Shown: positions 25,858 through 43,472 of the stretch, piece by piece
Numbering within the stretch: position 1 is the stretch's first letter
How the letters are laid out: each line of letters opens with the position of its first letter
Assembly: GCA_043815885.1 (NCBI GenBank)
Contig: JBDRIL010000043.1
Location: forward strand, 1-43,472
Length of the DNA: 43,472 nt
DNA from: an archaeon
Lineage (GTDB): Archaea > Iainarchaeota > Iainarchaeia > Iainarchaeales > 1-14-0-10-31-34
Reading direction: 5' to 3'
The notes under the pieces: generated by a model
What the model was told of the DNA's origin: nothing
Databases searched by the model: none
The model's input: only the letters and a program-made list of their open reading frames with translations
Made by a program: the position numbers and the translations under genes

Positions 25858-26360
25858 CTCCATGCAATCACCACCAACTGCATTGGAGTTACAACGAAAT
25901 CCACATCCAATACAACCGGATAAATTCTGTAGACTATCTTGTAATTATTTTCAAGCACTTTTTCTTTCGTGAATTCTTCCTCGAAATTTTCTTCAAAGTT
26001 AGTGCAGATAAACTTCTCCTCTTCGTTTTCTGGATAAATATTCAGAGCAAATATATCCACGTCAGTGATTATTGCTGGATTGAGGCTTAATTTAGTTAAG
26101 GCAGCAAAGTATTTCGGGTTCTGGATGTTCAGTGAACTGCATAAATTATCGAAGTCATCCACTCCTGAAATGAATCCAGTTCCCCTCAATGCATTAGAGA
26201 TTTGAGTTACTGCCAAATCATTGTCAAAGTCCTCACCTCTTTCATTGTAAGTAGACATTGCCATATAAAAGCCGGAGAAAAAAATAATCAATGCAAACAT
26301 TAATGGAATCAAGCTGGGAAGGTCGTCTCCAATTGGCCCGAGAAATGCTTTCTGTTTCAT
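25854..26360 (-). CDS. Pilin-like protein with variant class III signal peptide
   Basis: MKQKA/FLGPIGDDLPSLIPLMFALIIFFSGF; ATGA overlaps at both ends; GGAGG SD. Confidence 0.7.
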   Translation of the reverse strand: MKQKAFLGPIGDDLPSLIPLMFALIIFFSGFYMAMSTYNERGEDFDNDLAVTQISNALRGTGFISGVDDFDNLCSSLNIQNPKYFAALTKLSLNPAIITDVDIFALNIYPENEEEKFICTNFEENFEEEFTKEKVLENNYKIVYRIYPVVLDVDFVVTPMQLVVIAWR

Positions 26361-27007
26361 GAACCAGTTCCTCCTGGATTGAATTCACACAAAAAGCCTT
26401 GGCCAGAAAAGGCTTTTTCCCCTGCTTTATCATATCTCACAGAACAATCATCCCTAACACTAGAGGTAGTAGTACAGGGAACAAAAAAGACATTCTTTTT
26501 TCCATTCACGACCTGCATTACAATAATAATTGTATTTGTTGGGGGATATCCTTGCGGATCAAGTTCAACTAGATTTTCATTATTGAATTCCGGGTCATTA
26601 TCCGACGGGTCATGCTCAAAGAATTTAACTACTGCGTTTACATCGAATGAATCAGCTGCAATTAATTGCTCTGGTTTTGTTCTGGGGGTAATCTGAAAAA
26701 TTATTTTTTTTATATCATCCTCTGAGGTATCGATTGATTTAATGGTTAACTTGTAGTAGAGCCCTCTCCCGAATGTATTAGTTGGATTGACTTCAAGAGA
26801 GGAAGGAAGATAAAATGGTTTTTGGTCGCAGAGGGATTCACTTGTAACAATCATTCCGTAAACAATGTTTTTTGTGCTGATAATGTAATCCGTGCCTGCT
26901 TTCTCAAGCATTATCTGGCTTAAACCAAAAAGAAAGTAAGAAGTTATTGCAAAGACTGCAATAACCAGAATCAAGAGATTCATTTTGCTTAAAGTAAAAC
27001 CAAGCAT
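26357..27007 (-). CDS. Pilin-like/accessory protein with N-terminal hydrophobic helix and no obvious cleavable leader
   Basis: MLGFTLSKMNLLILVIAVFAITSYFLFGL, followed by an amphipathic helix and a Cys-containing beta domain; lies inside the pilin operon. Confidence 0.65.
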   Translation of the reverse strand: MLGFTLSKMNLLILVIAVFAITSYFLFGLSQIMLEKAGTDYIISTKNIVYGMIVTSESLCDQKPFYLPSSLEVNPTNTFGRGLYYKLTIKSIDTSEDDIKKIIFQITPRTKPEQLIAADSFDVNAVVKFFEHDPSDNDPEFNNENLVELDPQGYPPTNTIIIVMQVVNGKKNVFFVPCTTTSSVRDDCSVRYDKAGEKAFSGQGFLCEFNPGGTGS

Positions 27008-27023
27008 TGCAGAAAACCTTTAT

Positions 27024-27584
27024 CTAATTTTTTCTATAAGCACAGATTATGGTAAACACTTGATTGGTTATACGGTAATAGAATTGATAATGGCCTTTTT
27101 CAATTAAACTTGTCGGGTTCTTTGGAGAGGTAGGATTTATGTCAACTAATTCATATTGCTCATTTCCGATGACTTTATTGCATCCGTAATCGCCGTCTCC
27201 ATCAAAGGTTAAATCAAATGGAATTGCAACGCATTTAGGGGGAATCCTCGCATTATCGCTTCTGTACATTAAGAGAGTGCATTTTTCCGGAGAGCCAATG
27301 CACTGGCTGCATGAAATAGGATCATCAACTCTTGAGAGAAAGAATTTTTCGTTTTTCCCGCAGGAATCCATTTGAAAATCCACACTGCTTGCCCCTCCTC
27401 TTGAGACTGCCTCTATTGATGCTTTCAGGTCCTCCATTTTTTTTTCTGTTACCTTAACGCATTTCTGTTGCGATACTTCAGTCATTACAATTAATCCAGT
27501 AACTATTACAAACATCATTAGGATGACTGCAATCAGAACCTCAAAAGGAGCTTCTTCCTGTGCTTTTTCATTGAATAACTTCAT
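27024..27584 (-). CDS. Cys-rich pilin-like protein with class III signal peptide
   Basis: MKLFNEKA/QEEAPFEVLIAVILMMFVIVTGL. True start is 27584 (GGAGG SD, TAATG overlap with the upstream mini-pilin), not the track start 27704. Confidence 0.82.
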   Translation of the reverse strand: MKLFNEKAQEEAPFEVLIAVILMMFVIVTGLIVMTEVSQQKCVKVTEKKMEDLKASIEAVSRGGASSVDFQMDSCGKNEKFFLSRVDDPISCSQCIGSPEKCTLLMYRSDNARIPPKCVAIPFDLTFDGDGDYGCNKVIGNEQYELVDINPTSPKNPTSLIEKGHYQFYYRITNQVFTIICAYRKN

Positions 27585-27745
27585 TATTTCCCTCCAAGAG
27601 TCTTCTTGGAGATTTCCCCTGCCTGCTGAAACATTGGCTTGATTACAGTAATCAAAAGAAGTGCAGCAATAATCAGGATTATGAGCATGTAAACAGAATT
27701 CCATTCACTCTGCTCTCTTTCATCAAACAAAAAACTTTTCACCAT
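27584..27745 (-). CDS. 53-aa mini-pilin (Flp-like), not in the ORF track
   Basis: Manual translation: MVKSFLFDEREQSEWNSVYMLIILIIAALLLITVIKPMFQQAGEISKKTLGGK. Stop overlaps the next ATG; TATA box and SD lie upstream. Confidence 0.8.
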   Translation of the reverse strand: MVKSFLFDEREQSEWNSVYMLIILIIAALLLITVIKPMFQQAGEISKKTLGGK

Positions 27746-27754
27746 ACAAGTAAA

Positions 27755-27829
27755 TATCAGAACCTACGGTTCCGATACCTCCCTATTTTTTCTATTCAAT
27801 TAAATAAAACAGCAAAAGAAGTATATAAA
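27755..27829 (-). promoter_or_regulatory. TATA box, SD and 5'-UTR hairpin of the mini-pilin operon
   Basis: Minus strand: TTTATATA (27822-27829), then GGGAGG (27778-27783), hairpin TATCGGAACC-GTA-GGTTCTGATA (27755-27777), 9 nt, ATG. Confidence 0.65.
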
Positions 27830-27846
27830 TATTTACTAAAATCAGC

Positions 27847-27873
27847 TAAAAATAAAAAAATAAGGAAGAAAAG
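27847..27873 (-). terminator. Oligo-T terminator after the 177-aa pilin
   Basis: Minus strand reads ccttttcttccttatttttttattttt a few nt after the TAA. Confidence 0.5.
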
Positions 27874-27876
27874 GAG

Positions 27877-28410
27877 TTAACCTGCAATTACTCCTACAAT
27901 GCAGCAGGTTCCGGATGACGCTGTACAATCGCAATCATAAGGCCGTGTCTCCTCTGGAATAAAAGAAGTGTATCCTCCTTCGCCTAGATTTCCCTCGAGA
28001 TCAGAACCTTTATCGCAGTAAGCTGCTAAAAAGGCTTGCTTTTGTCCTCCGCCTGTATATTGAATGTAACTTTTTGTTATCTCCCAGGACCCTGCCCCTA
28101 CTTCATATACTGGATCTAAGAAAAGACAGAGGTCGCCTTCTCCAATTAATCCGGTTCCTTCTGCAATTGCTTTTCTGTTGATTTTTTGGTCGGTGGTAAA
28201 GGTTACTGCCTTGGACTTGAAGTCATTGTATCTGTTGTTGTAAGCGTCTTTCAGAATTGAAACAGATTCTTTTGTAGGATCAGCCTGGCCTAAAGAGGGA
28301 ATGATTCCCATTATCTGTAACAGCATTGTGAGAATGACTACTGCCACTACTGCAGAAATCAGTAATTTGAATACACTGAATTCCTGGCCTCTCTCATTAA
28401 ATCCCTTCAT
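27877..28410 (-). CDS. Pilin with class III signal peptide, candidate major pilin
   Basis: MKGFNERG/QEFSVFKLLISAVVAVVILTMLL; GGGTGA SD; own TTTTAAATA box at about 28445-28453; C-terminal DCDC...TCCIV. Confidence 0.85.
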   Translation of the reverse strand: MKGFNERGQEFSVFKLLISAVVAVVILTMLLQIMGIIPSLGQADPTKESVSILKDAYNNRYNDFKSKAVTFTTDQKINRKAIAEGTGLIGEGDLCLFLDPVYEVGAGSWEITKSYIQYTGGGQKQAFLAAYCDKGSDLEGNLGEGGYTSFIPEETRPYDCDCTASSGTCCIVGVIAG

Positions 28411-28459
28411 AAAAAAATCACCCAATAATAAAACATTATTCGAGTATTTAAAATTAACG

Positions 28460-28918
28460 TTAAGGAGAGGGATTTCTTCCAAAAGAAACAACACAGCAGT
28501 AATCGCAGGAGGAATCACAATCAAATAAAGATAATCCAGCAGAATTACACATTGCGAAAACAGTTGTGCGTATTGTGGAATTGAAAGTAATTTTTTTATT
28601 GCTATTACTTATTTCGATTGAATTACTTTGATAGGCATCAAAGGAAATGCATTCTTCCTTGAAATTAATTTGGCTTGCAAGAAACATTGAATTAAAGGAC
28701 TGGTTTTTGGAGAGAGTGACATCCTTTACAGTTATTACTGAACCATCCGGAGTCTTTACTGCAGAGCCAACCCCGTCAACAATTCTTTTAATGCTTAATT
28801 CATTGTTTATTTTTTCAAAATGATCAATTATCCCAAGTATAATGAACAGGATTGCCAAAGCAATTATTACTGAAATCAATAACTTGAATGGAGCAAATTC
28901 CTGTCCTTTTGAATTCAT
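28460..28918 (-). CDS. Pilin with class III signal peptide, paralog of the adjacent pilin
   Basis: MNSKG/QEFAPFKLLISVIIALAILFIILGII; C-terminal DCDSSCDYCCVVSFG resembles the neighbour. Start trimmed to 28918. Confidence 0.85.
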   Translation of the reverse strand: MNSKGQEFAPFKLLISVIIALAILFIILGIIDHFEKINNELSIKRIVDGVGSAVKTPDGSVITVKDVTLSKNQSFNSMFLASQINFKEECISFDAYQSNSIEISNSNKKITFNSTIRTTVFAMCNSAGLSLFDCDSSCDYCCVVSFGRNPSP

Positions 28919-28931
28919 AAAAAAAATCACT

Positions 28932-31352
28932 TTATGCAAATGTTCCGATGACCCCATTTGCTACAAGAATGCTTGCAACAAAAACAATCACTGCAATAGG
29001 CAGGGCCTTGGCAATATTTATTTTTGCCAGAAGGTTATTGTCTTCCTCAATCTTTGTAGTAAAGTACATCAGGATAATCACTAATTGAATTATGTAAATT
29101 GCAACAATGATAGTGAACTGGGCTGGATTGGCGATCTGGGAAAAGACTGCTTCATCCATTTGAATGCGGGACATTGTTTCAGTAAAGGAAGTAATGTCCG
29201 GGCCAATTCCTGTTGCAACATCAGGAACCCTTATGCTGGCAAGATTCTGGAAAGTGCCTTCCGAAATAATCTGCGCAAGAGTCTTCATTACAATTTTATG
29301 CAGTGCAGTAGTAATCCCCAATACAACCGGGGCAACAAAAATGCACATTATCTTCATAGTGGAAGTAATGTCCTTTACCAGAATGCTCAGCATCTTATTT
29401 ATTTTTTCAGAGTTATTCAGTTGGAGTGAGAGAGAAATTAAGGTTCGGGCTGAAACCTCTGAACCCATCTGAACTGAGTCAATGAGCAAGCGCATTGAGG
29501 TACGGATTATTGCTGAAGGATTGTGCTTCATTGCACCATAGGTTGGGTCAAATACAGCTGACTCTAAAGGCATTCCAAGCAGAATAATGTTATCCATTAT
29601 CTTGCCGAATAATTGTTTTGAAACCTTATAAGTTGGAAGGAATTCTCTTGTATGCCTTAAGGCTTCTTCCACTGGCTTGTTTTCTCCAAGGCGTGAAGCC
29701 AATACATACAGTGAGTCCTTGAATTCTGATTCCATCTGCATTGCGTCAAGCTGGACCTTTCTCTTATAAATGCTGGAGTAATAAAAGTAAATGAATATCA
29801 GTAGACTGAAGGTAATCAGTATTCCAAAAATTAAGTTGTATTGAGTGATGTCGTTCTTTGGGTCCATATAGAACTTGATTCTTTCTGCTTCAACTAATTC
29901 CATTGCATCATTGGAGCTGTGGCCTCTGCTGATTAATTGCTGGTAAAGCATTCCGCGTTTATCAAAGTAATCAATTGGATGGTCTGCATCAAATAACGCG
30001 CATTCATAGGTCTTGTCCGGAGGAATCAATTTAATTAATTGAACTGCCCCTCTTGGGGGATTCTTGCAGTCATATGCAAGCAATGGTTTTGGAATTGAGA
30101 CATCCTGGACGGAGTCTACTTCAAGCATTATTCCGTTCTGGTGCAGGTGAAGTGAAGTTATCCCTCCTACAATTAAAACCAGAATCATTGCAATCCTTAA
30201 ATCAATAAGAGTCTTTCCTGCCTTCATCTTCCATTTAGGGGGAATCAAAGGAGAATTATCAGGAATCTTTGGAGGTTCGTAAGTGGGAGGGCGGTTTCTT
30301 ATGACATTCCTGGCAAAAACAAATGCAGTGACAGGAATAACGATATTGTAAATCAGGATTAATAGTTCTGGGCGGGCCATTGCCTGCCCAGTGAAAGCAG
30401 AACCAACAGGAAGAATAATGATTAAGGTTAAGGGAAGCAGTACCCCAAGATAAAATAAAACCACTGTCGGCTGTGAAAGGTCTCGAGCGTATTGCTCCAT
30501 TTTATTCCTTATTGATTCAAGAACGTTTTCCATTGTTTTATCCAGTAACTGGAATCTCTTTGATTCAGTGTCCTCCAGGACTGAGGCTCTAACCATCATT
30601 AGAGAGGTCTTGAATTCATCTGAAAACTTTCCCCACCTGTAAGCCATGTCATCCAGTGCTTCACTCAAGGTATTATAGACTCCAAGCTGGACATTCCAGA
30701 GAATTCTTTTGAAGTCTTCAGCAATCTTTCCCTTTCCATGAGAAGCAGCAAACTCCACTGCTTTTTCCAGATTCGGAACAAGCTTCATTGACATTATCAT
30801 GTAACCCATTATTTCCGGGACATAGGTCAAGGCCCTAACCTGTTCTATTTTTGCTTCATTGAGCGGATACTTCTGGACAAAGTTAACCAGTAAATAGACA
30901 AGAAGGATTACCGGAACAAAGACATAAAAATAACTTAAAGGCCCTACTCCAGTGAATTCATTTATTACATCCATTAAGGTGAAGGTTCCCTCTTCTCCTG
31001 AACCAAGAGGGAAATAAAATGCAATAAGAACCAAAATAAAACCAAGCATTATGGAGAGAAGTAAAGTGAATTTTATTGCTGCAGTCAATTCCTCTGCTGA
31101 AAGCCGCCATCCAAGAAAATCAATTGCTTCCTTGTATTTCTGCTTGAATTTTGCTCCCTTTCCAAGGGAAGGCATTGTGGAATAACACCATTTGCAGAAC
31201 CTCACAAAGCCTGTCTCCTTTTTCTTCACCAGCTTTGTTTCTGCTTCAGGGAATTCTTTCTTGGTGTAGGCAATGCTTCTGTAGATTTCTCCTGGAGTTA
31301 TCTCTTCTGGTTCAATATTTTTTTGCTGAACCCTTCTTCTTTCCCTCGGCAT
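28932..31352 (-). CDS. Type IV pilus membrane platform with two fused T2SSF domains (TadB+TadC/FlaJ-like)
   Basis: Two T2SSF-like halves (YVPEIMGYM...NLEKAVEFA...GKIAEDF and EFKDSLYVLASRLGENKPVEEAL) with multiple TMs; directly downstream of the ATPase. Confidence 0.85.
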   Translation of the reverse strand: MPRERRRVQQKNIEPEEITPGEIYRSIAYTKKEFPEAETKLVKKKETGFVRFCKWCYSTMPSLGKGAKFKQKYKEAIDFLGWRLSAEELTAAIKFTLLLSIMLGFILVLIAFYFPLGSGEEGTFTLMDVINEFTGVGPLSYFYVFVPVILLVYLLVNFVQKYPLNEAKIEQVRALTYVPEIMGYMIMSMKLVPNLEKAVEFAASHGKGKIAEDFKRILWNVQLGVYNTLSEALDDMAYRWGKFSDEFKTSLMMVRASVLEDTESKRFQLLDKTMENVLESIRNKMEQYARDLSQPTVVLFYLGVLLPLTLIIILPVGSAFTGQAMARPELLILIYNIVIPVTAFVFARNVIRNRPPTYEPPKIPDNSPLIPPKWKMKAGKTLIDLRIAMILVLIVGGITSLHLHQNGIMLEVDSVQDVSIPKPLLAYDCKNPPRGAVQLIKLIPPDKTYECALFDADHPIDYFDKRGMLYQQLISRGHSSNDAMELVEAERIKFYMDPKNDITQYNLIFGILITFSLLIFIYFYYSSIYKRKVQLDAMQMESEFKDSLYVLASRLGENKPVEEALRHTREFLPTYKVSKQLFGKIMDNIILLGMPLESAVFDPTYGAMKHNPSAIIRTSMRLLIDSVQMGSEVSARTLISLSLQLNNSEKINKMLSILVKDITSTMKIMCIFVAPVVLGITTALHKIVMKTLAQIISEGTFQNLASIRVPDVATGIGPDITSFTETMSRIQMDEAVFSQIANPAQFTIIVAIYIIQLVIILMYFTTKIEEDNNLLAKINIAKALPIAVIVFVASILVANGVIGTFA

Positions 31353-31383: not shown

Positions 31384-33675
31384 TTATTTTTTTGGTTTCC
31401 TTCTTGCAAGAAGTCTCTTCAGGAATTCATCCTTCACCCAGTGCTTCCATTCCCCAAGCAATGCATTGTAGTCAATGCTTCCATGCAATTCAATCTGTTC
31501 CTCCTTCAAGATATGCAGTTTATTGTTTGCTGCAACTGAATTCTCTGCCTCAAGCAGGTCAGGAAAGTCATGCTTGTTCTTTAATTCAACAAGAAATGCT
31601 TTAGAGTTTGCATTCAATTTAATGTTCTGCCAGATTTTATCCATTGAAAGGCCTGTTGTCTTCTGGATTTTATTGAATAACTGTGAATCCTTTAAATTAT
31701 CTTCCAGTAATTCAATCTTGTCCTTTCTTGCATCAAAAAGCATTAAATCAAGCAAGCCTCCTTCCTGTTGTGGGTCAGTAATCCAGTCCTTCTTTACTTC
31801 AGTTATCTGGTAGACTCTTCTGTGCCTTTCAATTGAACCGCCAAACCTTATTGGGCGGGCAACAACAACTACATCTGTTGCCTTAAAGGAAGTATTAGGT
31901 ACTTGCAAGTCATTCACTACCCTGTCCCATACAGAGTAAGCGGAATCCCCGTGAATTGTTCCGATTACAATATTCCCTGCTGCACCAATACGCATTGCCT
32001 CATAAAGCACTTTTGCTTCCAGGCTTCTGACTTCCCCTATTATCAGAGCTGAATCCCCTAACCTTAAAGCAGTCCTTAATGCTTCTTCCGGGGCAACCTC
32101 TGATTCAGTCTTGCTTATAGAGATTGGAGAACGGGTTTTCAGTCTCTGAATATTAAAGCCTATATCCTTCATGTAAGGAACAGGAAGTTCAAGAGTGTCC
32201 TCCTGAACAATTATTCTGGTGTTCTGCAGTATCTCCAAAGCCATTGCTGCAAGCAATGAAGTCTTTCCTGAACCTCTGCTTCCAGTAACCAGCATTGTTG
32301 ACTGCGTGTCAACAAAAAAACTCAGTAAGCCAGCAGCCAATGGAGTGAGAAACTTCACGTCAATGAATTGAGGCAAGGTCCATGGAGTGACTTTATGCAG
32401 CCTGAAAGCAAAAGCAATTCCATCCGGAGCAAGAGGCTTTCCAATTACCGCTACTCTTGTTTCTAAATCCTCTAAATCAAAGTCTAAGGCGGGGTGAGCT
32501 TCATCGAATGGTCTGCCTGACATTGCCCTTAGTTTTGAAACCAATGAATTTGCTTCCTCTTCTGAATAAAGGACATTGGTTTCGCACTGGCCGTAATCAG
32601 AATGCACTACATAAAGAGGTTTTTGCCCTACAGGCGAATCCAAGTAAATGTCTGTAAGGTTTCTGTCGTTTAACAGAATTTCAAGTATTCCATAACCAAC
32701 GGTATATCTTGCAACAATTTCGGCTAATTCCTTTATTTCCTCTTTCTCTAATTTAATGTTGTTTTGGTTGGAGATATCCATTATGGTTGATTCATATACT
32801 CTTTCAAAATAGCGTCTTGATTTAGCGATAGCAGAAAGAGAGGTTTTTCCTGGCTTGTAGGAAGCCACAACCTCCTTTGTCTTGGAGAGAATAAAATATT
32901 TTTCCGGGGGAAGCGTGTATTCAGGGGGATTAATGAAGTAAAGCTTCTCTGTTTTATTTGGGTGCTTGTAGATTTGAACTGACGCTTTTTTCACAGTGTA
33001 TTCATCCAATAACTCCAGTGTTTCTGCTTTCTCAAACATTAATCTGGAGGAAATGAATGCAGGCTTTACCTGTGCTTCAAAGAAGGTGTGATAGATTTGA
33101 ATTGTGTCTGGAACTTTTTCTAATTTCAGTATTACCTTCCTGACTTTCTGAATAAAATCTGTTTCCTCTAATGCAGTCTTTATATAGGAAAGTGTTTTGA
33201 GATAAATTTGGTGGGATTCTGCTTCGGCTCCTTCAAGAGAAGAAATTTTTTCATGGATTCTTTTTATTTCACTAAGGCAGGTAATGTATGAAAGGATTGG
33301 ATCGCTTAAAAGCAGGTCGTGAGTGATTTTAATTATTGTGTCATGCCTTTCCCCGAATTCCTTTTCATCTGGAGCAGCAGCTTTTCCTAAATGCGAGTAA
33401 CTCCAGATATTCTCCAAAGAAAATTTTGGAATTAAAGCAGCGATTTCAGTGAGATATGCCGTCTGTTTTTCAGAATAAACTCTTTCATACACGTCTCCCA
33501 ATACAACGAGTTTTGCTTCAAGCTCTCCTAAAAGAGTAAGTATATGGATTCTGCAACGAAAGTCATCAGCAAGACTTGAACCATAAGGACAGTCCCTGCA
33601 ATCAGTAATCAAGTGCCTTTTTCCTGCTGATTCCTTTATTACATAGTCCCCTACTTCAAAGTTACCAATCTTCAT
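31384..33675 (-). CDS. Type IV pilus/type II-IV secretion ATPase (VirB11/FlaI family) with a long N-terminal extension
   Basis: Walker A GSRGSGKT, QEDTLEL, LRLGDSALIIGEVRS and GTIHGDS; N-terminal DCRDC...CRIH. Confidence 0.93.
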   Translation of the reverse strand: MKIGNFEVGDYVIKESAGKRHLITDCRDCPYGSSLADDFRCRIHILTLLGELEAKLVVLGDVYERVYSEKQTAYLTEIAALIPKFSLENIWSYSHLGKAAAPDEKEFGERHDTIIKITHDLLLSDPILSYITCLSEIKRIHEKISSLEGAEAESHQIYLKTLSYIKTALEETDFIQKVRKVILKLEKVPDTIQIYHTFFEAQVKPAFISSRLMFEKAETLELLDEYTVKKASVQIYKHPNKTEKLYFINPPEYTLPPEKYFILSKTKEVVASYKPGKTSLSAIAKSRRYFERVYESTIMDISNQNNIKLEKEEIKELAEIVARYTVGYGILEILLNDRNLTDIYLDSPVGQKPLYVVHSDYGQCETNVLYSEEEANSLVSKLRAMSGRPFDEAHPALDFDLEDLETRVAVIGKPLAPDGIAFAFRLHKVTPWTLPQFIDVKFLTPLAAGLLSFFVDTQSTMLVTGSRGSGKTSLLAAMALEILQNTRIIVQEDTLELPVPYMKDIGFNIQRLKTRSPISISKTESEVAPEEALRTALRLGDSALIIGEVRSLEAKVLYEAMRIGAAGNIVIGTIHGDSAYSVWDRVVNDLQVPNTSFKATDVVVVARPIRFGGSIERHRRVYQITEVKKDWITDPQQEGGLLDLMLFDARKDKIELLEDNLKDSQLFNKIQKTTGLSMDKIWQNIKLNANSKAFLVELKNKHDFPDLLEAENSVAANNKLHILKEEQIELHGSIDYNALLGEWKHWVKDEFLKRLLARRKPKK

Positions 33676-34847: not shown

Positions 34848-35372
34848 GTGAAGAAAAAAAAGTTATTTAGGGAAATTTCCAGGGAAGACATGGCGAAGGG
34901 AGGAAAGTTCCTGGTAATTCTTATAGTGGTTTATGCATTGCTTTCATTTGGAGTTAATTTAATTGTTCCGCTTGAATTCATTGAATTAATTGTTGCAAAG
35001 GGAGTAAGTTTATTGCTTGGAGTCATGGGGATACGGAGTGAAATAATTTTGGGAGAGCCGATAAAAATAATTCTTTCTGCTTCAACTGTACAGATAAGTT
35101 ATTTGTGTACAGGGTTAATGGAATTATTTATTTTGGTTGCTGCGGTTGTCGCTACAACAGGAATTGAATGGAAAAAGAAATTGATTGGAGTGATTGGGGC
35201 AGGAATCACTGCATTTGCATTTAATTTATTCAGGATCACTGTCACTATTCTTATTCTGAGTTCCTTCAGTCTGGAAACCGCTGAATTAACGCATGATTTG
35301 CTTTTCAGGATTTCCTTGTTTGTGGTAATCGTGGGGTATTATTTCGTATGGTATTACTTCAGCACAAAATGA
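34848..35372 (+). CDS. Exosortase/archaeosortase-family membrane protease
   Basis: Catalytic-type residues in family order: ISYLCTG (Cys), FNLFRI (Arg), LTHDLLFR (His); 4-5 TMs. Confidence 0.85.
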   Translation: MKKKKLFREISREDMAKGGKFLVILIVVYALLSFGVNLIVPLEFIELIVAKGVSLLLGVMGIRSEIILGEPIKIILSASTVQISYLCTGLMELFILVAAVVATTGIEWKKKLIGVIGAGITAFAFNLFRITVTILILSSFSLETAELTHDLLFRISLFVVIVGYYFVWYYFSTK

Positions 35373-35922: not shown

Positions 35923-38900
35923 GTGATTGGAGAAAAGCTTGCGGCAGTGTACAGTAAGTTAGAGAATGGCTTTTATTCAATACTGGATTTCATTGATTCA
36001 AAGGGAGTTCCTGTTTATTCAGTGATTGACCCTATTGAAGAGAGAGGGATTCCTGCTTTTCCGTTGTTTATTGCATTGCTGGTAATACTTATTTCTGCTT
36101 TGTTTGCTTTTTCTGTTGTAGGAACAGGGATTGCCCCGACATTCCAGTTCTCTATTGTGGATGAACAGGGAAATTCATTGAGTGGAGTAATTGTTTCAAT
36201 TTATAACGGGAAAGGAGAAAAGATAGCTGATTCAATTACTGCAGGAGACAAGGTAAGCTATAAAATGGGGGAAAAGATTCCTGCAGGAGAGAAGATAAGG
36301 ATTGTGGGGAGAAAGGACGGATACCAGGAAGGAGAGTATGTAATACCAAAGTTAACTGAAGAAAACCTGCAGATTCCATTGATACTGGAAAAGATTGGGG
36401 GAATGGTTACAGGAAGCATTAGGTTTTATGACGAGATTTCAGGAACGCCAATTCCTTATGTTGAAGCAATAGTATTGTTTGATGATGAATCAATTGAAAG
36501 AGTAAGCGACAATAACGGAGAAATTTCTTTGGGAGCAATTCCAAAAGGAAAAGAACTTTTATTGAGGGCATTTGCTGACGGCTATGAAGATTACGAGGAA
36601 GGAATTTCATTTGAATCCACTTACACTAAATCTGTTTTCATGACTCCAGAGAGCATTGCACTCGAAGGAGAGTCTTTGCTGACTATTACTGTGATTGATA
36701 AGGAAACCAGGGAATTCATTGATGGAGCAAGGGTGCAGGTTTACGATAATGAAACATCTGCATTGCTTATAGATAAAATAATTGAGGCAGGGGTTTTTTC
36801 AGAATTAGTTCCAAAGGGAACAGTTGTAAGGATTGTTGCAGAGAAAGAAGGCTATGTGAAGTATGATTCACTGGATGAAGAAAAAGTTATTACAATAAGA
36901 GCAGAGCATGAGGATTGGGGGAAGGTTGAATTATCAAAAGGAGGGGAGCTTCTGCAGGTTAATGTAATTGACAGTGAATCAGAGATGCCTTTAATTGGGG
37001 CAGAGATAACACTGTTTAATTCCGGGGGAGAGGTAATTGATTCAGGGATAACTGAATTCGGGGGATTTGTTGAATTCAGGGACTTGAATGCTAATTCAAC
37101 TTACTTTATTGGAGGGCAAGCTGAAGGATATCTTCCAACAACAATGGAATTCATTCCAAAGGCAAGAAAATCAATTGATTTTAAATTGGATAGAATGACT
37201 TCAAGCAATTCAGGAATGCTTATAGTTCATGTAATTGATTCAAGAAGGCAGGAAGCAAACAATGCAACACTTAAATTCTTTGAATTTGCAGAGGAAGGAA
37301 TTATTCCTTTAGGAATTAAACCACAGGAAACGAGTATTGATGGAAGTTATTCATTGAAGGTAGCGTTAGGAAAGAATGTTTACGTTGAAGCAATCAAGGG
37401 ACTGGAGAAAGGAGACGGAAATAAATTAATTGAAACAGGAACAAATGATCTGCTCATTGAATTGGAATTGAGCAAGACAGTGAAGTTATTGAGGTTCAAG
37501 GATGAAAATGGAAATTATCTGCAGGAAGGAAGAGTGGTGATAAGGAGCAGTGACGGTTTAACCTTATTTGATGGAAATATAGAGGAAGGAGAAATATTAT
37601 TTGATACTTTTGGAAACAAGTATCTGGAGATAGAGGTAACAACCCCTGATGGAAGGAAGTACACTGAACAGGTTACTGTTGGGGACGAGGATGAAATAGA
37701 GATTAATGTAAGGCCTGTTTCATTCAGTGAACTGGCTCCGGAAATTAGTTTCATTGAAGTAAGGGATTTAGATGGAGAGACGGTTGAAGGGTTAACCAAA
37801 GGAAAAGAATATGTACTGGTATTTGAAACCAAATGGATTGAGGGAAGATACAATGGAGGAGTTCATGTAAGGGTCGGCCCGGACAACATCAAGTATGTGG
37901 ATTCACAGCATGTGGGAATAGTTGGATTTGATTCATTAACCAAGAATTATTTTTACGGGAGAACGTATTCAGGGAAAAACGAGGGAATTGATTACAGCAA
38001 TAAAGGAAAGAGCGGGGAATACAATAAATTCCTTGAACTGTATCTGGACAATCCTTCCGGAAATAAAATAATTAAAGTAAAAGTAAAAGTAAGAGAAACA
38101 TTCAATGGAGAAACATTCCAGGTGCATTTCCGTGCATGGAGCAATATGAGTGGAAGCTATTACAGGGCTCCAGAGGATGCGGAATTGGGAGAAGAGGAAT
38201 TCAATGAATTAAAGTCTGGATTGTATGCAGAAACCTTCACTAAGGATATAAGGGTGTTTGATTCAGAACCAACTTGCAGTGAAGAAGTGTGTTCTTCTTA
38301 TTTATTCCTTGATGACACAATGAAAGCCTATGAGAGAACTGAATTCTTTGCAGTAAAGGACAAGGTTTATGCATTGCAGTTTGAGTTGAGCAGTGAAAAG
38401 TCAGCCACTGCAACAGTAAATGCCTCTACTTCAAAGGAAAACCCGAAGATTGCATTCACTGGAAAAGAGCTGGAGGTATTTTCGGATACTTTTATTGATA
38501 ATGAGAGCAGTGAGACAGCAATTCAATTCAATCAAAGCATTCCAAGAGACAGCCCAAAAAAGGCAAGAATTTATTTTAAGGCAAATGAATTAGGGCAGGC
38601 ATTAGTAAAGACACAGGTTATTGCAGGAAATAGCGTGCTGGAGGAAAGCTTTTATTTCAGGGTTTACGAAGAAGAGGAAATGCTTTTCACTATTGAACCA
38701 TCAGTTATTTCGATTGGAAAGGATTTTTTGATTACTTTAAAGAGCAGGAGCGGAGAAGCGATTACAAATGCGGATATAAAGTTCTTTGATTCAAGAGGAA
38801 TAATGGTTGAGAAGATTATAGGAAAGGATGAAGCTGGAAAGGGAAGGAATGGAAGATATGAGGTAAAGAATAACTTTGATGCAGGAAAGTATTTTGTGGA

Positions 38901-41900
38901 AATTACTTCTCCAAGGTACACGCCTGTCAATACAGAGATATTTATTGGAAGGGAAGACGGAATAAAGCTGGATGAAGAAATAATGGTGGACATTCTTCAC
39001 GGAGAAGAAAGCAGAATCATTTTTTCTCCGGTAAGGAATGAGACAACTGCTGACTTAACGAATGTAAGCATTGAATTAAAGTATCCGATTAATTTCCCTA
39101 AGGAATTAAGCCTTACCGCAGTCATTCCTGAATTCATTCCAAAGAATGAAGGAACACAGATAGAATTAAGTGCAACCTATACCGGAGTAAAGGATGAAAT
39201 ATCCCATGGAGAGGCAGAGGCAATCATTACTGGCTATGCAGAGGGAAGCTATCCAATAAGGGCAAAGACAAGAATAATAGTGAATTACAACAGGAAACTT
39301 GATCCAAAGTGCTTGAAGTTTGACAGGCCGGAATTAAAGGAGTACTTGATTGGAGTAGAGGGAAACAGCAAGCAAATGGAATTAAAGATAAAGAATGAAT
39401 GCGGGGTTCCGCTTACATTAATTCCTGAATTTGTTTCAAGAGGAGAAGCAGATGAAGGACTGGAGTTTTCATTCGGGGAAATAAAGCTAATGGAGGGAGA
39501 AGAAAAGACAGTCAAAGTAAGCGTAATGAATAAGATAATGAGGGCGTTTGCAGAACAGAAGGAAGTGGAATACGATTTATTCCTGCATTCGAATCAATTG
39601 AGCAGAAGCATTCCAATAAAGATAATTTTATGGGATGAAAAGTTTTCATTGGAAGTAACCCCTCAAATAGTAATTTACATGACTCAAACACAGAGAGGAG
39701 TGAAGGCAACTGCATTCAGGGACATCTATGTAAGGAATACTGCTTATGCAGACATAGAGAACCTGAATATAGGGATTGACAGCAAGGCTGACTGGCAGCA
39801 ATTAGGCATGCAGATTTTGCCTAAACAGGACGTGGCTGTACTTAAGAAAGGAATGGCTTTAACTCCTCCATTCAGAGTGGTATTTGAATCAGATTCAGAA
39901 AAGAATTTCTTGGTTAACGGAAAGCTTCTTGTGAATGGAAGCATTGAGGGAAGGCAGTATCTGCTTAGAGAAATAGATGTATATGTTCATGTATCTGCTG
40001 GATTTGGCTGTTTAGAGGTATGGGCTGACGAGAGTCTGGACTTTATTTCAAGGGACGTGAAAACAGGATTCATTGAAAGAAAGCTAAGGATAACAAATCA
40101 TTGCCTTGAGCCAGTAGAGATAAGGGGAATAGAAGGAGAAAGGATTGGAGACAACAGGTTCAGCATTAATCCTACTTCAATGCAGTTAATGCCAAGGCAA
40201 AGCGCGGAACTGACTTTAACACTTCATAAGAAACAAGGTTCAACCTGGAAAGGGGAAACAAAGTTAAGGCTTAATGCACTGGCTTTACAGTCTTTAAGGG
40301 AAATCAAGAGCCAGGACATTACTGCATACCTTGAATTAGGAGAAACAACAGTAAGCTGTGGAGGAATCCAAGGAACATGTCTGGTTAGGGGAAAACAGGA
40401 AATAGATGTATGTGAACCAGGAGAAGGAACAAAGGAAGTTTATTTCCCTAAAATGGCTGACAATGATAACTGCAGTGAAGGATACTGTGATTCAGTGCAG
40501 TTATCGAAATTCCTTGCAGAAAAAATCGTTGAACAGATAAGGCAGGCAGAGAGAGGCATTGCAACTGCAAGCCATTCTTCCCTGGAGTTGGGGGGAAAGT
40601 GCATGGTTAATGAAGGCTATTGTTCCTTTGGAGCATTAGGAGTGCTGAGCAAAAGCTTTGAGGTATTCATGGTTAACGACAAGCTTGGAAAGCATGCTTT
40701 TGAGAGGATAGTGAGAGAGGGAAAGTATGATGAATTGCAGAATCCGTTTGTAAGGGAAATGGATGCAGCAGAATTAGGGCCAATAGTGAGAGGCGGATTC
40801 AGCGGAAGGACAGTAATCCTTCCAACTAAATTCGAGGGATGCGGAAGATATACTGTAAGGATTAATGGAGCAGTACAGGTGTACGGAACAGAGCTTGTTC
40901 CGGAAAACATGGCAATACATGTAGAACTGGAAAAAGAAAGAGAGACAACCCCAGAATGCGAGAACAGGATTCAGAATGTAATGAACTTTATTCCGATAGA
41001 TGGCGGGCTGAATTACGGTACAAGGGAAGAGACATGGCTGGGGTTGATTCAATCCAATAACGAAATGAAACCGATTACAGAAGACTTTTCTGACGGATTG
41101 TTTGGAACAAAGGAAAGAGTTGTTTCCTCTCCGGCAAACAATTACATTAAGTTTGCATTCGGTGAAACAGGAACAGAGAAGGTAAAGATAGCAATAGACA
41201 AGAGCGGTGCAGCAGGAGAACCAAAAACAGTGAATGTATTCATTAATCCAAACTACAAGGAAACAGGGGAAGAAGAACTAAAGAAAAACATTGCATCAGA
41301 TGCAGGAAAAATAATCAGGAGCCTAAAGAACGGAGTAATAGAGAAAGGATGCATCAGCCCGGAAGAAGATTATCTGCTGATTAGTTCTACAAGTGATTTG
41401 GTTGAAGAGGCCGACCTGAAATTTGAACCTCTGGAAGTAAATACAATTAAATTATATATAGGGAAAGAGAACTGCATTGACTTCAATGTTTCAAGCAAAC
41501 TGAAAGCAAAGATGACTTTAAAGTATTCCTTTGAAGAAACAAGAGGAGTCACTTTTGTTGGATTCAAGAATGAAAGAGACGACAAGGAATTAAAGCAGGA
41601 ACTTGTACTGAATGAAAACGAATTCAAGAAATACGATACAAGATACAAGAGAAGCTTCCTGCTCTGCGTTACAGGACATGCAGATGATTTAAGCAAGGCA
41701 CAAGGCGCACCAATAGAAATGTATATTGAGAACACTGAAACAAAAAAAGAAATAAAGATTAATCTCTGCGGGATTCATCCACTTGATTTAGTGAAGAGAG
41801 CAAATGAGTGGGCAGAGGCAGAAAATGAAAAACTAAAGATAGGAGACAAACCCTATTATGCCACTGTTGGATGGAAGGGAGGAGACAACGAAATCACACT

Positions 41901-43472
41901 GCCAGATATAATGAATAAACTGAAAGAAGAAGACCCGGAAAAATATGATCCGGACATACAATGGAACAACGCAATAAAGACAAAGAAGTTGGGCGGGGTT
42001 GGAGCTTATGCTGCTGGGTGCGCACTTGGGTCATTGATTGCTATCCCAATAAAAGGTGTTGCAACAGTGCCAGAAATGCTTTGGAATTGCGGTATTCCAG
42101 TTGGTGCCGGATTACTGGACACTGTGGGAGCATGGAAAGTCATTGCTAATACTGTGAAAAATGCATGGGGGCATTTTAACTCAATTTTGCCAGGAGGAGA
42201 CCCTTACGCTCCGCAGGAAACAAAAGAAATAATAGCCAGAGGAGAGCAGACGCCTCAAATGAAGGGAAGCGCGTTTGGTGAATACGATAGAAGCGATGTG
42301 AGGGTTATTGGATGGACTGGAGCAGGAGCAGTTCTCTCAAAATCAATTTACAGTGCAGCTAAAATAAAGCCTGAATTGGCGGCAAGCACCTTGAGTAAAA
42401 TAAAGAGTGTTGCAAAGAATCTTGGAATAAATGAAGAGGAAGCAAAGAAACTGCTTGCCGGCTCAAAAGAGATTACGCCTGAAACCCTTGAAAAAACCGC
42501 TAAGGAAATAGGGATTTCAGCGGAAGAATTAAAGAGTAGACTGGATTCAACAGAATTAAGAAACAGAATAGCTAATGTCGGAGGGGAAACAGTTTCACCA
42601 GAGCAGCTTCAAAAGAATATTGCTTCTTTGCAGGACGATATTACAAAAATGAACAAGGAGTTTACGGACTTGGATGATCTTTTTTCAAAAACCAAGGTAA
42701 AATCAATTGAGTATGATGACCTTACAAAAGGTTTCAAATATACTGGTGACGAGCCAATCAGCAAAGCAACCGGTGACCGAGTTATTAACAAATTAAAGTC
42801 ATTGGGGATGGATAAGCCGGAAGAATTTTTTACGACTAGTCAAGGAATTGATGACATTAAAGGACAATTAGTTAAATTGGAGGGAGGACTGCAATCAAAA
42901 GCTGAATCAGTTTTGAATCAGGCTAAAGCACTCTCGGGGGAAACTGATGAAGGAAAACAGTTGTTTTCAAAGGCAAAGGAACTGAGTGAAGAAATCGGAG
43001 GAGTTGCGAAAAAAGGAGGAAAATTAGATGATACAATTAGGGTTTCAGAGCAATTAGCCAAGAATGCTGAAGTGAAAAAGGCATTTGAATCAGTTTCAAA
43101 GGGAGACATCAGTATAGAACAGGCAGCAAAAAATCTGGAGACAAAGCCATGGGTAAAGACACTTTTTAAACACCTTGGAGTGGGAGTGGTTGCACAGGCA
43201 ATGGGTCTAGTCGGATGGGGTGTTTACTGGGATTTGCAGAAATTGCCTACAGAACTGGAAGTAGATCATTCAGGAACAGAAGACAGGGACATCACATTCA
43301 AGAAGTATGAGACATATGAGGTTAGCGTTGTTAAGACAAAAGGAGGCAATAAGGAAGTAAAGTACAAGCAATTAACTAGTATTGATTCAGTTGATGTAGC
43401 TGAACTTACTGCAAGGAGAATGGATGACTGCACTGGAGAATTCATAAAAAAGGAAATGGATATTCCGAAGAC
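35923..43472 (+). CDS. Giant (>2516 aa, 3'-truncated) membrane-anchored surface protein with carboxypeptidase-regulatory-like beta-sandwich repeats
   Basis: GTG 35923 follows a GGTGA SD. I translated most of the frame by hand and met no stop; the ORF track also lists no stop-terminated ORF in this frame. Begins MIGEKLAAVYSKLENGFYSILDFIDSKGVPVYSVIDPIEERGIPAFPLFIALLVILISALFAF (TM), then repeats such as IVDEQGNSLSGVIV, VIDKETREFIDGARV and VIDSESEMPLIGAEI. Confidence 0.9.
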   Translation, partial: MIGEKLAAVYSKLENGFYSILDFIDSKGVPVYSVIDPIEERGIPAFPLFIALLVILISALFAFSVVGTGIAPTFQFSIVDEQGNSLSGVIVSIYNGKGEKIADSITAGDKVSYKMGEKIPAGEKIRIVGRKDGYQEGEYVIPKLTEENLQIPLILEKIGGMVTGSIRFYDEISGTPIPYVEAIVLFDDESIERVSDNNGEISLGAIPKGKELLLRAFADGYEDYEEGISFESTYTKSVFMTPESIALEGESLLTITVIDKETREFIDGARVQVYDNETSALLIDKIIEAGVFSELVPKGTVVRIVAEKEGYVKYDSLDEEKVITIRAEHEDWGKVELSKGGELLQVNVIDSESEMPLIGAEITLFNSGGEVIDSGITEFGGFVEFRDLNANSTYFIGGQAEGYLPTTMEFIPKARKSIDFKLDRMTSSNSGMLIVHVIDSRRQEANNATLKFFEFAEEGIIPLGIKPQETSIDGSYSLKVALGKNVYVEAIKGLEKGDGNKLIETGTNDLLIELELSKTVKLLRFKDENGNYLQEGRVVIRSSDGLTLFDGNIEEGEILFDTFGNKYLEIEVTTPDGRKYTEQVTVGDEDEIEINVRPVSFSELAPEISFIEVRDLDGETVEGLTKGKEYVLVFETKWIEGRYNGGVHVRVGPDNIKYVDSQHVGIVGFDSLTKNYFYGRTYSGKNEGIDYSNKGKSGEYNKFLELYLDNPSGNKIIKVKVKVRETFNGETFQVHFRAWSNMSGSYYRAPEDAELGEEEFNELKSGLYAETFTKDIRVFDSEPTCSEEVCSSYLFLDDTMKAYERTEFFAVKDKVYALQFELSSEKSATATVNASTSKENPKIAFTGKELEVFSDTFIDNESSETAIQFNQSIPRDSPKKARIYFKANELGQALVKTQVIAGNSVLEESFYFRVYEEEEMLFTIEPSVISIGKDFLITLKSRSGEAITNADIKFFDSRGIMVEKIIGKDEAGKGRNGRYEVKNNFDAGKYFVEITSPRYTPVNTEIFIGREDGIKLDEEIMVDILHGEESRIIFSPVRNETTADLTNVSIELKYPINFPKELSLTAVIPEFIPKNEGTQIELSATYTGVKDEISHGEAEAIITGYAEGSYPIRAKTRIIVNYNRKLDPKCLKFDRPELKEYLIGVEGNSKQMELKIKNECGVPLTLIPEFVSRGEADEGLEFSFGEIKLMEGEEKTVKVSVMNKIMRAFAEQKEVEYDLFLHSNQLSRSIPIKIILWDEKFSLEVTPQIVIYMTQTQRGVKATAFRDIYVRNTAYADIENLNIGIDSKADWQQLGMQILPKQDVAVLKKGMALTPPFRVVFESDSEKNFLVNGKLLVNGSIEGRQYLLREIDVYVHVSAGFGCLEVWADESLDFISRDVKTGFIERKLRITNHCLEPVEIRGIEGERIGDNRFSINPTSMQLMPRQSAELTLTLHKKQGSTWKGETKLRLNALALQSLREIKSQDITAYLELGETTVSCGGIQGTCLVRGKQEIDVCEPGEGTKEVYFPKMADNDNCSEGYCDSVQLSKFLAEKIVEQIRQAERGIATASHSSLELGGKCMVNEGYCSFGALGVLSKSFEVFMVNDKLGKHAFERIVREGKYDELQNPFVREMDAAELGPIVRGGFSGRTVILPTKFEGCGRYTVRINGAVQVYGTELVPENMAIHVELEKERETTPECENRIQNVMNFIPIDGGLNYGTREETWLGLIQSNNEMKPITEDFSDGLFGTKERVVSSPANNYIKFAFGETGTEKVKIAIDKSGAAGEPKTVNVFINPNYKETGEEELKKNIASDAGKIIRSLKNGVIEKGCISPEEDYLLISSTSDLVEEADLKFEPLEVNTIKLYIGKENCIDFNVSSKLKAKMTLKYSFEETRGVTFVGFKNERDDKELKQELVLNENEFKKYDTRYKRSFLLCVTGHADDLSKAQGAPIEMYIENTETKKEIKINLCGIHPLDLVKRANEWAEAENEKLKIGDKPYYATVGWKGGDNEITLPDIMNKLKEEDPEKYDPDIQWNNAIKTKKLGGVGAYAAGCALGSLIAIPIKGVATVPEMLWNCGIPVGAGLLDTVGAWKVIANTVKNAWGHFNSILPGGDPYAPQETKEIIARGEQTPQMKGSAFGEYDRSDVRVIGWTGAGAVLSKSIYSAAKIKPELAASTLSKIKSVAKNLGINEEEAKKLLAGSKEITPETLEKTAKEIGISAEELKSRLDSTELRNRIANVGGETVSPEQLQKNIASLQDDITKMNKEFTDLDDLFSKTKVKSIEYDDLTKGFKYTGDEPISKATGDRVINKLKSLGMDKPEEFFTTSQGIDDIKGQLVKLEGGLQSKAESVLNQAKALSGETDEGKQLFSKAKELSEEIGGVAKKGGKLDDTIRVSEQLAKNAEVKKAFESVSKGDISIEQAAKNLETKPWVKTLFKHLGVGVVAQAMGLVGWGVYWDLQKLPTELEVDHSGTEDRDITFKKYETYEVSVVKTKGGNKEVKYKQLTSIDSVDVAELTARRMDDCTGEFIKKEMDIPK

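Follow-up and report, generated by a model that had tools for sequence, protein, structure and literature searches.

A conserved helix module, predicted to be disulfide-stapled, precedes exchangeable wall hydrolases in giant putative surface proteins of Iainarchaeales

Giant transglycosylases of small-genome DPANN archaea have been described as family fam00969, whose members reach ~3000 amino acids (aa), carry a GH23/SLT domain, are specific to Woese- and Pacearchaeota and were proposed to bind or degrade bacterial walls (Castelle et al., 2021, PMC8204110). Passages on giant transglycosylases in two later papers give the same account (Vigneron et al., 2022, PMC9723730; ISME J, 2024, PMC11537232). 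Here we describe the distal part of a giant protein encoded on a 43,472-nucleotide (nt) stretch of DNA from an archaeon of the order Iainarchaeales (assembly GCA_043815885.1, contig JBDRIL010000043.1, here C43; "the window" means this whole stretch). The protein is similar to fam00969 in size (~2695 aa) and in its GH23 tail, which resembles goose lysozyme; because both fit the published description, it very probably belongs to a known family of the fam00969 type, with membership judged by description and not by sequences. The passages describing fam00969 deal with the transglycosylase domain and protein size, and the hydrophobic hairpin, variable insert, third helix, cysteine pairing, alternative tails and pilus link reported below are not mentioned in them. 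Passages of the full-text literature on DPANN transglycosylases and giant surface proteins, type IV pili, and fusogens or pore-formers likewise contained no description of the helix module. In the passages concerned, giant transglycosylases were noted as wall-binding or wall-degrading enzymes only (PMC8204110, PMC9723730). Here the enzyme proves to be the end piece of a distal module that is conserved almost throughout the order and has features of a membrane-engaging device, and the type of enzyme is exchangeable. To our knowledge, no DPANN member of the Woese-/Pacearchaeota type is in culture; the module bears on how these archaea attach to partners and use them, and on whether the partners are bacteria.

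The closest working analogue, by function and not by homology, is the tape-measure protein pb2 of phage T5. Passages on pb2 describe a long, extended protein with a coiled coil, a muralytic C-terminal domain and 46 hydrophobic residues in one stretch; these are interpreted as two transmembrane helices, which are proposed to enter the host membrane and form a channel (Linares et al., 2023, PMC10038345). The hairpin in the window protein also comprises 46 residues and also has a peptidoglycan-cutting domain downstream of it. However, the window protein is cell-anchored, whereas pb2 is housed in the tail tube; an insert of 260-1000 aa and a third helix separate hairpin and enzyme; the helices bear conserved paired cysteines; and the enzyme is a lysozyme instead of the metallopeptidase of pb2. 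PHROGs profiles did not match the module in any of the four orthologs with hairpin and linker that were scanned, and tblastn of the module against 50,697 phage records returned nothing. The nearest ESM Atlas neighbours of the module are phage hypothetical proteins at 0.82, including a PT-TG cluster, which lie below the 0.9 line and are a lead only.

Other systems share single aspects of this architecture. Colicin-type domains and the T domain of diphtheria toxin contain a small-residue hydrophobic hairpin with a short uncharged loop, hidden within a soluble fold until an energised membrane is met. The window module has such a hairpin and loop, but it has no Pfam match to these domains, the helices around it do not form a ten-helix bundle, and we know of no colicin or diphtheria T domain that is disulfide-stapled across the hairpin. 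CdiA and other polymorphic toxins are giant surface filaments that combine a conserved trunk and a pre-effector module with a C-terminal enzyme that can be exchanged. Tails of the family studied here are exchangeable too (SLT, glucosaminidase, two amidase families and NlpC/P60); however, two-partner secretion, filamentous haemagglutinin and VENN features were not found (one ortholog has a weak DUF637 match, E 5.9e-4), the effectors are wall hydrolases rather than intracellular toxins, and an immunity gene is not expected downstream, nor was one seen. SAR endolysins, finally, have a weakly hydrophobic, Gly/Ala-rich, Cys-bearing N-terminal helix next to a lysozyme domain, which acts in the producer's own membrane. 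A Cys-bearing, weakly hydrophobic helix lies near a lysozyme domain in the window protein as well, but ~2000 aa from the N terminus and after a true anchor.

The distal module is conserved, single-copy and not a product of chance. Its parts in the window are listed below; KD19 is the mean Kyte-Doolittle value over 19 residues and dG a 19-residue biological-hydrophobicity sum, both computed with simplified scales and without position terms, and pLDDT is the predicted local distance difference test of AlphaFold2.

35923..43470, + strand: giant open reading frame (ORF), 2516 codons with no stop before the window end
36064..36120, + strand: N-terminal signal-anchor helix, residues 48-66 (KD19 3.02, simple dG -4.43)
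41755..41988, + strand: conserved pre-hairpin block, residues 1945-2022 (C.IHP..L ... YYAT..W.G.P), W1984 invariant, AlphaFold2 pLDDT ~90
41989..42126, + strand: hydrophobic helical hairpin, residues 2023-2068 (46 residues), backed by conservation and AlphaFold2 helices
42019..42021, + strand: codon of Cys2033 in arm 1, predicted disulfide partner of Cys2056
42088..42090, + strand: codon of Cys2056 in arm 2, predicted disulfide partner of Cys2033
42127..43146, + strand: hypervariable, Cys-free, mostly helical linker, residues 2069-2408, including the 2128-2146 segment and LG(I)xxEE repeats
43147..43236, + strand: third conserved hydrophobic helix, Gly-rich, residues 2409-2438 (K.LGKG..(C)G..AN.AG..AY), G2428 invariant
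43237..43470, + strand: small beta domain, residues 2439-2516 (F.K..TY ... DDC), followed on contig C38 by the GH23 lysozyme-like tail

A previous reading of the window from its letters alone (the sequence-only reading) had singled out this region as a hydrophobic hairpin plus helical module. The hydrophobic peptides that it quoted are found in the translation of 35923-43470 exactly where it placed them: residues 2023-2071 correspond to nt 41989-42135, 2128-2146 to nt 42304-42360 and 2417-2436 to nt 43171-43230. KD19 is 1.68 for residues 2023-2041, 1.22 for 2056-2074 and 1.34 for 2418-2436, compared with 3.02 for the anchor; the 2128-2146 segment is weaker (~0.95), and in the whole protein only two other windows of 19 residues reach 1.2. 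In the hairpin, arm 1 spans residues 2025-2041 and arm 2, which bears a D-C-G-x-P motif, residues 2048-2065; the short loop between the arms is uncharged and contains G2045. Residues 2147-2417 (271 aa) contain no cysteine and are rich in Lys (15.1%), Glu (11.1%) and Ala (7.4%), and AlphaFold2 models the linker as helices at low confidence, in agreement with the Cys-free Lys/Glu/Ala helical stretch that had been noticed. The short repeat reported there, AKNLGINEEE/AKEIGISAEE, has its two starts at residues 2164 and 2193; this part of the linker is specific to the lineage and aligns poorly. The return to beta-rich and Cys-rich sequence was seen as well, as predicted strands at 2458-2483 and as a Cys-rich stretch of 179 aa on C38. 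A thioester, intein or autoproteolysis role for the D-C-G-x-P motif was considered and dropped, since the sole hint was a Pfam Intein_splicing match at E 0.13.

Orthologs were recovered by six-frame genome search only, not from protein collections. With a single-sequence query, weak matches were obtained within ORFs of 2400-2900 aa in 6 other genomes. A profile of the hairpin block built from 6 sequences matched 136 of the 196 genomes of the order, including 48 of the 55 high-quality ones. With an 82-sequence profile, matches were found in 113/132 genomes of a phylum sample (at least 85% complete), 111/125 inside the order and, weakly, 2/7 outside it. There is nearly always one module match per genome, as is the case for the genome of the window, and the matched ORFs are 2400-3450 aa long and neighbour a type IV pilus-like locus. 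We took 85 orthologous regions and dropped 4 that run off contig ends; the remaining 81 orthologs and the window make up the 82 sequences analyzed below. A word-indexed search of 5.8 billion proteins with the module gave no true relative among proteins of 1383-4403 aa, and a profile search for longer proteins gave two unnamed hypothetical proteins and no true relatives. Phmmer against 1.84 billion representatives gave three matches, namely the C38 fragment of the protein itself and two unrelated proteins whose likeness to the module is confined to an "LG.S.EEL" helix-turn repeat. The repeat of the window protein, A-K-x-(L/I)-G-I-x-x-E-E (42412-42540, residues 2164-2206), is like a helix-turn unit reiterated many times in two unrelated proteins of the representative set, one of which has a signal peptide; it is a weak match to Pfam HTH_3 (E 0.054).

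Conservation is concentrated on both sides of the linker, as the sequence-only reading had suggested should be checked in homologs: the hydrophobic segments are kept across orthologs, whereas the helical stretch that they enclose is hypervariable. Besides the invariant W1984 and G2428, Y2465 is kept in at least 90% of the 82 sequences, and within the hairpin Y2029 is kept in 83%, C2033 in 96%, G2045 in 100% where present, D2055 in 67%, C2056 in 96% and P2059 in 89%. The beta domain is small throughout the family, with Y2465 and the DC motif conserved. By contrast, the linker is poorly alignable and varies from 84 to 1031 aa (median, 398), and a third weak hydrophobic segment after the hairpin reaches a KD of at least 1.2 in 28/82 orthologs. 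Cysteine makes up 6 of the 32,987 linker residues (0.02%) and is absent from 78/82 linkers, compared with 1.0%-1.8% in the flanks and 5.5% in the hairpin. In ORFs of the source genome that lack a strong hydrophobic segment, Cys accounts for 1.10% of residues and 7.2% of 340-aa windows are Cys-free, so a single Cys-free stretch of that length is unremarkable. The family-wide exclusion is ~55-fold below the genome level and far beyond chance. One same-family ortholog (genome G001, locus L014, 12749-12943) has an in-frame TAA early in the beta domain, with a frame after the stop that is still domain-like; possible causes are recent truncation, an error in the sequence or read-through.

The cysteines of the helices show a parity pattern. 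C2033 and C2056 are both present in 79/82 sequences and both absent in 3/82, and neither ever occurs singly, which suggests that the two arms are probably stapled by a C2033-C2056 disulfide. Counted as hairpin and third helix, Cys numbers are (2,0) in 38 sequences, (3,1) in 29, (5,1) in 9, (0,0) in 2 and (4,0) in 1, and the three odd-sum combinations (2,1), (3,2) and (5,2) occur once each, so that the sum is even in 79/82. A Cys in the third helix thus occurs in step with an odd hairpin count. In the simplest reading, the extra arm-1 Cys near the loop would pair with the one at which the third helix begins, and such a pair appears to tie the third helix to the hairpin in about half of the orthologs. 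Because of this pairing, the third helix would run antiparallel to arm 1. If these disulfides form, the unit should fold outside the cytoplasm; the parity therefore points to a disulfide-stapled, extracytoplasmic unit of three helices. The raw Fisher p of 1e-19 disregards relatedness. On a tree of the flanking alignment columns, the two parities switch 10 and 9 times. Of the families, 13 are even/even throughout and 7 odd/odd throughout, 1 contains both coherent states and 3 contain an exception. In one family (f30; L068, L082, L083 and others), five hairpin cysteines and one in the third helix would give three disulfides, and its proteins stop 2-6 residues past the DC motif, with no enzyme tail.

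AlphaFold2 gave a mean pLDDT of 67 from the 82-row alignment (a single-sequence model, at 45.6, was unusable), with values of ~90 for residues 1945-2075 and ~80-92 for 2384-2514 and low values for the linker. Helices were predicted at 2010-2040, 2048-2068, 2071-2088 and 2409-2438, and the strands at 2458-2483 have a pLDDT of ~90. When the hairpin block and the third-helix/beta block were predicted as a complex, the scores were 0.45, 0.54 and 0.42, with 0.00 for the best control ("weak support"); a pass at this level was obtained for 18/157 solved complexes and for both of the passing mismatches. At least 79% of contacts agree between runs, with a partner pLDDT of at least 61. At most, these runs hint that the two blocks may pack together. 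Foldseek of the 572-aa model against PDB and BFVD produced no match at E <= 1e-3; the best BFVD match had E 9.8e-3 and a TM-score (template modelling) of 0.10, the whole 572-aa model and not its single domains being the query. VIA-align placed generic spectrin-like three-helix bundles on the linker (model residues 277-420) and barely covered the hairpin part; its Z values of at most 9.3 are below the noise level stated for helical bundles.

Next to these putatively stapled helices lies a predicted wall hydrolase. Downstream of the DDC motif, the window protein continues for 193 aa, of which the C38 portion (179 aa) is rich in Cys. Pfam SLT alone is below threshold on this tail (E 0.0065; 16.5 bits versus 21.3). 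However, BLASTP shows it to be homologous to the tail of ortholog G002 (3e-12), and a profile of the two matches the goose-type lysozymes 1gbs (E 0.0018), 153l (0.0048) and 3gxk (0.027), the alignment covering profile positions 13-171 and chain positions 12-181 of 185. The window QQESS aligns with lysozyme SRESH, which contains the catalytic Glu, and YNRGTG with YNAGAG; both are kept in the G002 tail, and the motifs taken here as marks of GH23 are a catalytic Glu-Ser pair and, further on, YN.G. ESM Atlas neighbours of the window tail are SLT and lysozyme g clusters at 0.95. From these matches we assign the window tail to the GH23 lysozyme/SLT (goose-type) domains, with predicted activity on peptidoglycan, an assignment that extends to tails of the window/G002 type only. 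Other orthologs carry other enzymes, and the five tails with a Pfam-level hydrolase (E <= 1e-3) are as follows:

G018 (1.3e-11) and G003 (3.4e-14): SLT tails
G022: Amidase_2 plus Glucosaminidase tail
G025: Glucosaminidase plus Amidase_3 tail
G050: Glucosaminidase tail

Two of these five also match phage endolysin families, and an NlpC/P60 domain is found within the module of one ortholog. The remaining tails have a ~150-aa helical domain in common. Between the window and G003 tails, the alignment is limited to the stretch before the domain (E 2e-4). Tails are at least 119 aa long in 65/81 orthologs, 60 aa in one and at most 26 aa in 15. We conclude that the enzyme is exchangeable and sometimes absent, while the helix module is constant.

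The tail should lie outside the cell, like the 1950-aa ectodomain, because it is Cys-rich and is predicted to act on peptidoglycan, which archaea do not have. The partner is likely a peptidoglycan-bearing bacterium and not another archaeon. This bears on the proposal of the sequence-only reading that the module takes part in DPANN-host junctions: the place of the module, at the host-facing end and ahead of peptidoglycan hydrolases, suits such a role, but the likely partner is a bacterium.

The distal helices are weakly hydrophobic. The best 19-residue window of the hairpin has a median dG of +4.09 kcal/mol (minimum +1.71), and that of the third helix +7.00 (minimum +2.57). In either arm and in the third helix alike, 0/82 sequences have a dG of +1 kcal/mol or less, whereas nine N-terminal anchors from this protein family score -1.8 to -8.7; a KD of at least 1.6 was found in 33/82 hairpins and 1/82 third helices. 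The distal helices fall short of translocon-type hydrophobicity (dG near or below 0; KD19 of ~1.6 or more). Given these unfavourable dG values, the segments should cross the archaeon's own translocon along with the ectodomain. The share of strongly polar residues is nevertheless small, at 5.8% in arm 1, 6.4% in the 5-residue uncharged loop and 10.7% in arm 2. On its N-terminal side the third helix is flanked by basic sequence (net charge +2.57), on its C-terminal side by acidic sequence (-2.88).

As the best joint explanation of these data, to which we would give a little less than an even chance, a giant surface protein is held in the archaeon's own membrane by its N terminus and carries the module at its far end. 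An N-terminal segment of ~47 aa, common to paralogous giants, precedes the anchor helix. The four parts of the module would be the hairpin, the variable insert, the third helix packed back on the hairpin, and the beta domain with the hydrolase. The three helices would fold outside the cell as a disulfide-stapled bundle, the C-terminal enzyme would open the wall of the bacterial host, and the bundle would then engage or insert into the host membrane, in the manner proposed for the hydrophobic hairpin of T5 pb2. This role for the stapled helices is put forward tentatively, by analogy; insertion into the host membrane is plausible but inferred. The explanation yields a bounded construct of ~300 aa without the insert, for which two or three disulfides, interaction with lipids and voltage dependence are predicted, and the variable insert may track host range.

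Several results weigh against host-membrane engagement. No homology or fold match to a pore-former, translocator, fusogen or tape-measure family was found with Pfam, PDB sequences, PHROGs, Foldseek or tblastn; the kinship with alpha pore-forming toxins and secretion-system translocators that the sequence-only reading had drawn on is not borne out by similarity in sequence, profile or fold in these searches. For spontaneous membrane insertion the helices are not very hydrophobic, and both scales were simplified. Relatedness allowed for, Cys covariation is not established, with 2 independent pairs on supported branches. Little or no tail is present in 16/81 orthologs, a Pfam-level peptidoglycan hydrolase (E <= 1e-3) in only 5/82 tails, and the catalytic Glu-Ser is absent from many tails; a profile of all 64 tails had no PDB match. 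Finally, the confidently predicted stapled unit could equally be explained as a permanent protein core.

In this last form, the alternative that survives best, the bundle would stay buried and never enter a membrane, perhaps as the oligomerisation core of a distal head, and would hold the beta domain and hydrolase, the linker being an exposed, fast-evolving decoration. We regard this as unlikely, if by no means far-fetched. In its favour, the even Cys totals (79/82) and the joint loss of C2033 and C2056 are consistent with a unit that folds outside the cell, both flanking blocks are modelled with confidence by AlphaFold2, helices rich in small residues tend to pack tightly, and no similarity to membrane-active families was seen. 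However, three helices of 17-18 residues with 6%-16% strongly polar residues have no solvent face, and ~300 aa of flanking sequence would need to bury them completely. The dipole of the third helix (+2.57/-2.88) is opposite to the preference for helix capping and resembles a membrane-orientation signal, and a position just before wall-cutting enzymes matches that of known envelope-breaching proteins. The sequence-only reading had named burial in a globular fold among the findings that would refute its proposal. Cys parity and the AlphaFold2 model do suggest a folded, stapled unit, but hairpins of the colicin type are buried too.

A topology in the archaeon's own membrane is improbable. In it, the hairpin and third helix would be marginal transmembrane helices, the ectodomain a giant extracellular loop, the linker cytoplasmic and the hydrolase at the cell's own surface. 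Marginally hydrophobic helices do occur in multi-pass proteins, the charge dipole of the third helix fits an N-in/C-out span, and the weak segment after the hairpin (KD of at least 1.2 in 28/82) would make the number of spans even and leave the Cys-rich tail outside. Against this stand the distal dG values, none of which falls to +1 or below in 82 sequences, as against -1.8 to -8.7 for the anchors scored, and the third helix, which attains a KD of 1.6 only once. The conserved paired cysteines imply an oxidising compartment, whereas the pair between arm 1 and the third helix would face the cytoplasm; linker Cys is ~55 times under the genome's 1.10%; and variation between 84 and 1031 aa is unexpected for the cytoplasmic domain of a core gene. 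We conclude that ordinary self-membrane helices, which the sequence-only reading had named as a finding that would refute its proposal, are unlikely.

More specific than host-membrane engagement, and decidedly doubtful at present, is a contact-dependent translocator, in which, once the lysozyme tip has opened the wall, the stapled unit would enter the energised host membrane loop-first. The cytoplasmic face would attract the basic N-terminal flank of the third helix, and the insert would be threaded into the host cytoplasm, where the sequence-only reading had placed the helical domain. Both the exclusion of Cys and the dipole of the third helix are compatible with this location. If this were true, the module would form an archaeon-to-bacterium junction or conduit, with an injected domain in an arms race with hosts. 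Least probable of all, with a very slim chance, is a lipid-handling unit that opens to extract or carry host lipids for an organism that may not be able to synthesise membrane lipids itself: lipid synthesis is commonly missing in DPANN archaea, saposins are bundles of helices that bind lipids and are linked by disulfides, and disulfide-stapled, very apolar helices at the host-facing tip would suit this role, but Pfam, Foldseek and VIA-align found no saposin-like family or fold and the long variable insert is given no part in it.

The giant gene is split between contigs. The assembly of the source genome (1.16 Mb, 62 contigs, 91.7% complete) breaks inside this gene, so that its GH23 tail and the remainder of the locus are found on a second contig, C38. 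The last 141 nt of the window (43332-43472) are identical to the first 141 nt of C38, and the reading frame carries on for 179 codons into C38 (2-676) up to a stop, giving the total of ~2695 aa. The join restores the gene order of relatives, that is, the giant gene, a protein of 556-610 aa and paralogous giants. The 556-610 aa protein (C38 765-2594) always follows the giant gene, both on C38 and in orthologous loci L011-L015; it has a bacterial-looking, pilin-like N terminus (KGFTLFTALV) and no Pfam match, and it may be a large pilin-like or tip protein. Three tandem paralogous giants lie downstream on C38 (2700-10346, 10367-17305 and 18728-23653; 2549, 2313 and at least 1642 aa). They have an N-terminal segment of ~45 aa (MGLKEFY...IPVYK.ID), a strong anchor helix and immunoglobulin-like/CarboxypepD_reg repeats, and the distal helix module was not found in these three.

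Upstream of the giant gene, the window encodes an exosortase-family protein and a locus resembling that of a type IV pilus:

34848..35372, + strand: exosortase/archaeosortase-family membrane protein, 174 aa (PF09721 E 2.5e-7; 30.8 bits, cut-off 25.7)
31384..33675, - strand: type II/IV secretion-family ATPase, 763 aa, of the type IV pilus-like locus (PF00437 E 4.3e-17)
28932..31352, - strand: platform protein resembling T2SSF/PilC, 806 aa (PF00482 E 1.2e-4; 22.5 bits, short of the cut-off of 25.2)
25117..28957, - strand: run of small ORFs, several with pilin-like N termini (short charged leader, G-Q, hydrophobic helix)

The 174-aa exosortase-family gene sits directly upstream of the giant gene. 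Substrates of archaeosortases and exosortases are recognised by a short motif, a hydrophobic helix and a basic tail at the extreme C terminus. The giant protein was rejected as such a substrate: its third helix is not C-terminal, being followed by ~260 residues, and the C termini of the paralogs have no terminal helix. The usual C-terminal sorting signal was seen in no protein of the locus. An N terminus homologous to the ATPase adjoins the giant gene in 4/5 orthologous loci inspected. None of the small ORFs in 25117..28957 has a Pfam match, and several may encode pilins, judging from the N-terminal pattern. At the edge of the pilus-like locus lies a gene for a 1492-aa protein with a signal-peptide-like N terminus and no Pfam match (19212-23690, - strand). 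Within the locus, a 255-aa protein (24353-25120, + strand) ends in a zinc-ribbon/RING-like motif (Pfam E ~2e-4 to 4e-4, below cut-off). A Pfam match to PAC2 (E 1.8e-40) agrees with an archaeal source.

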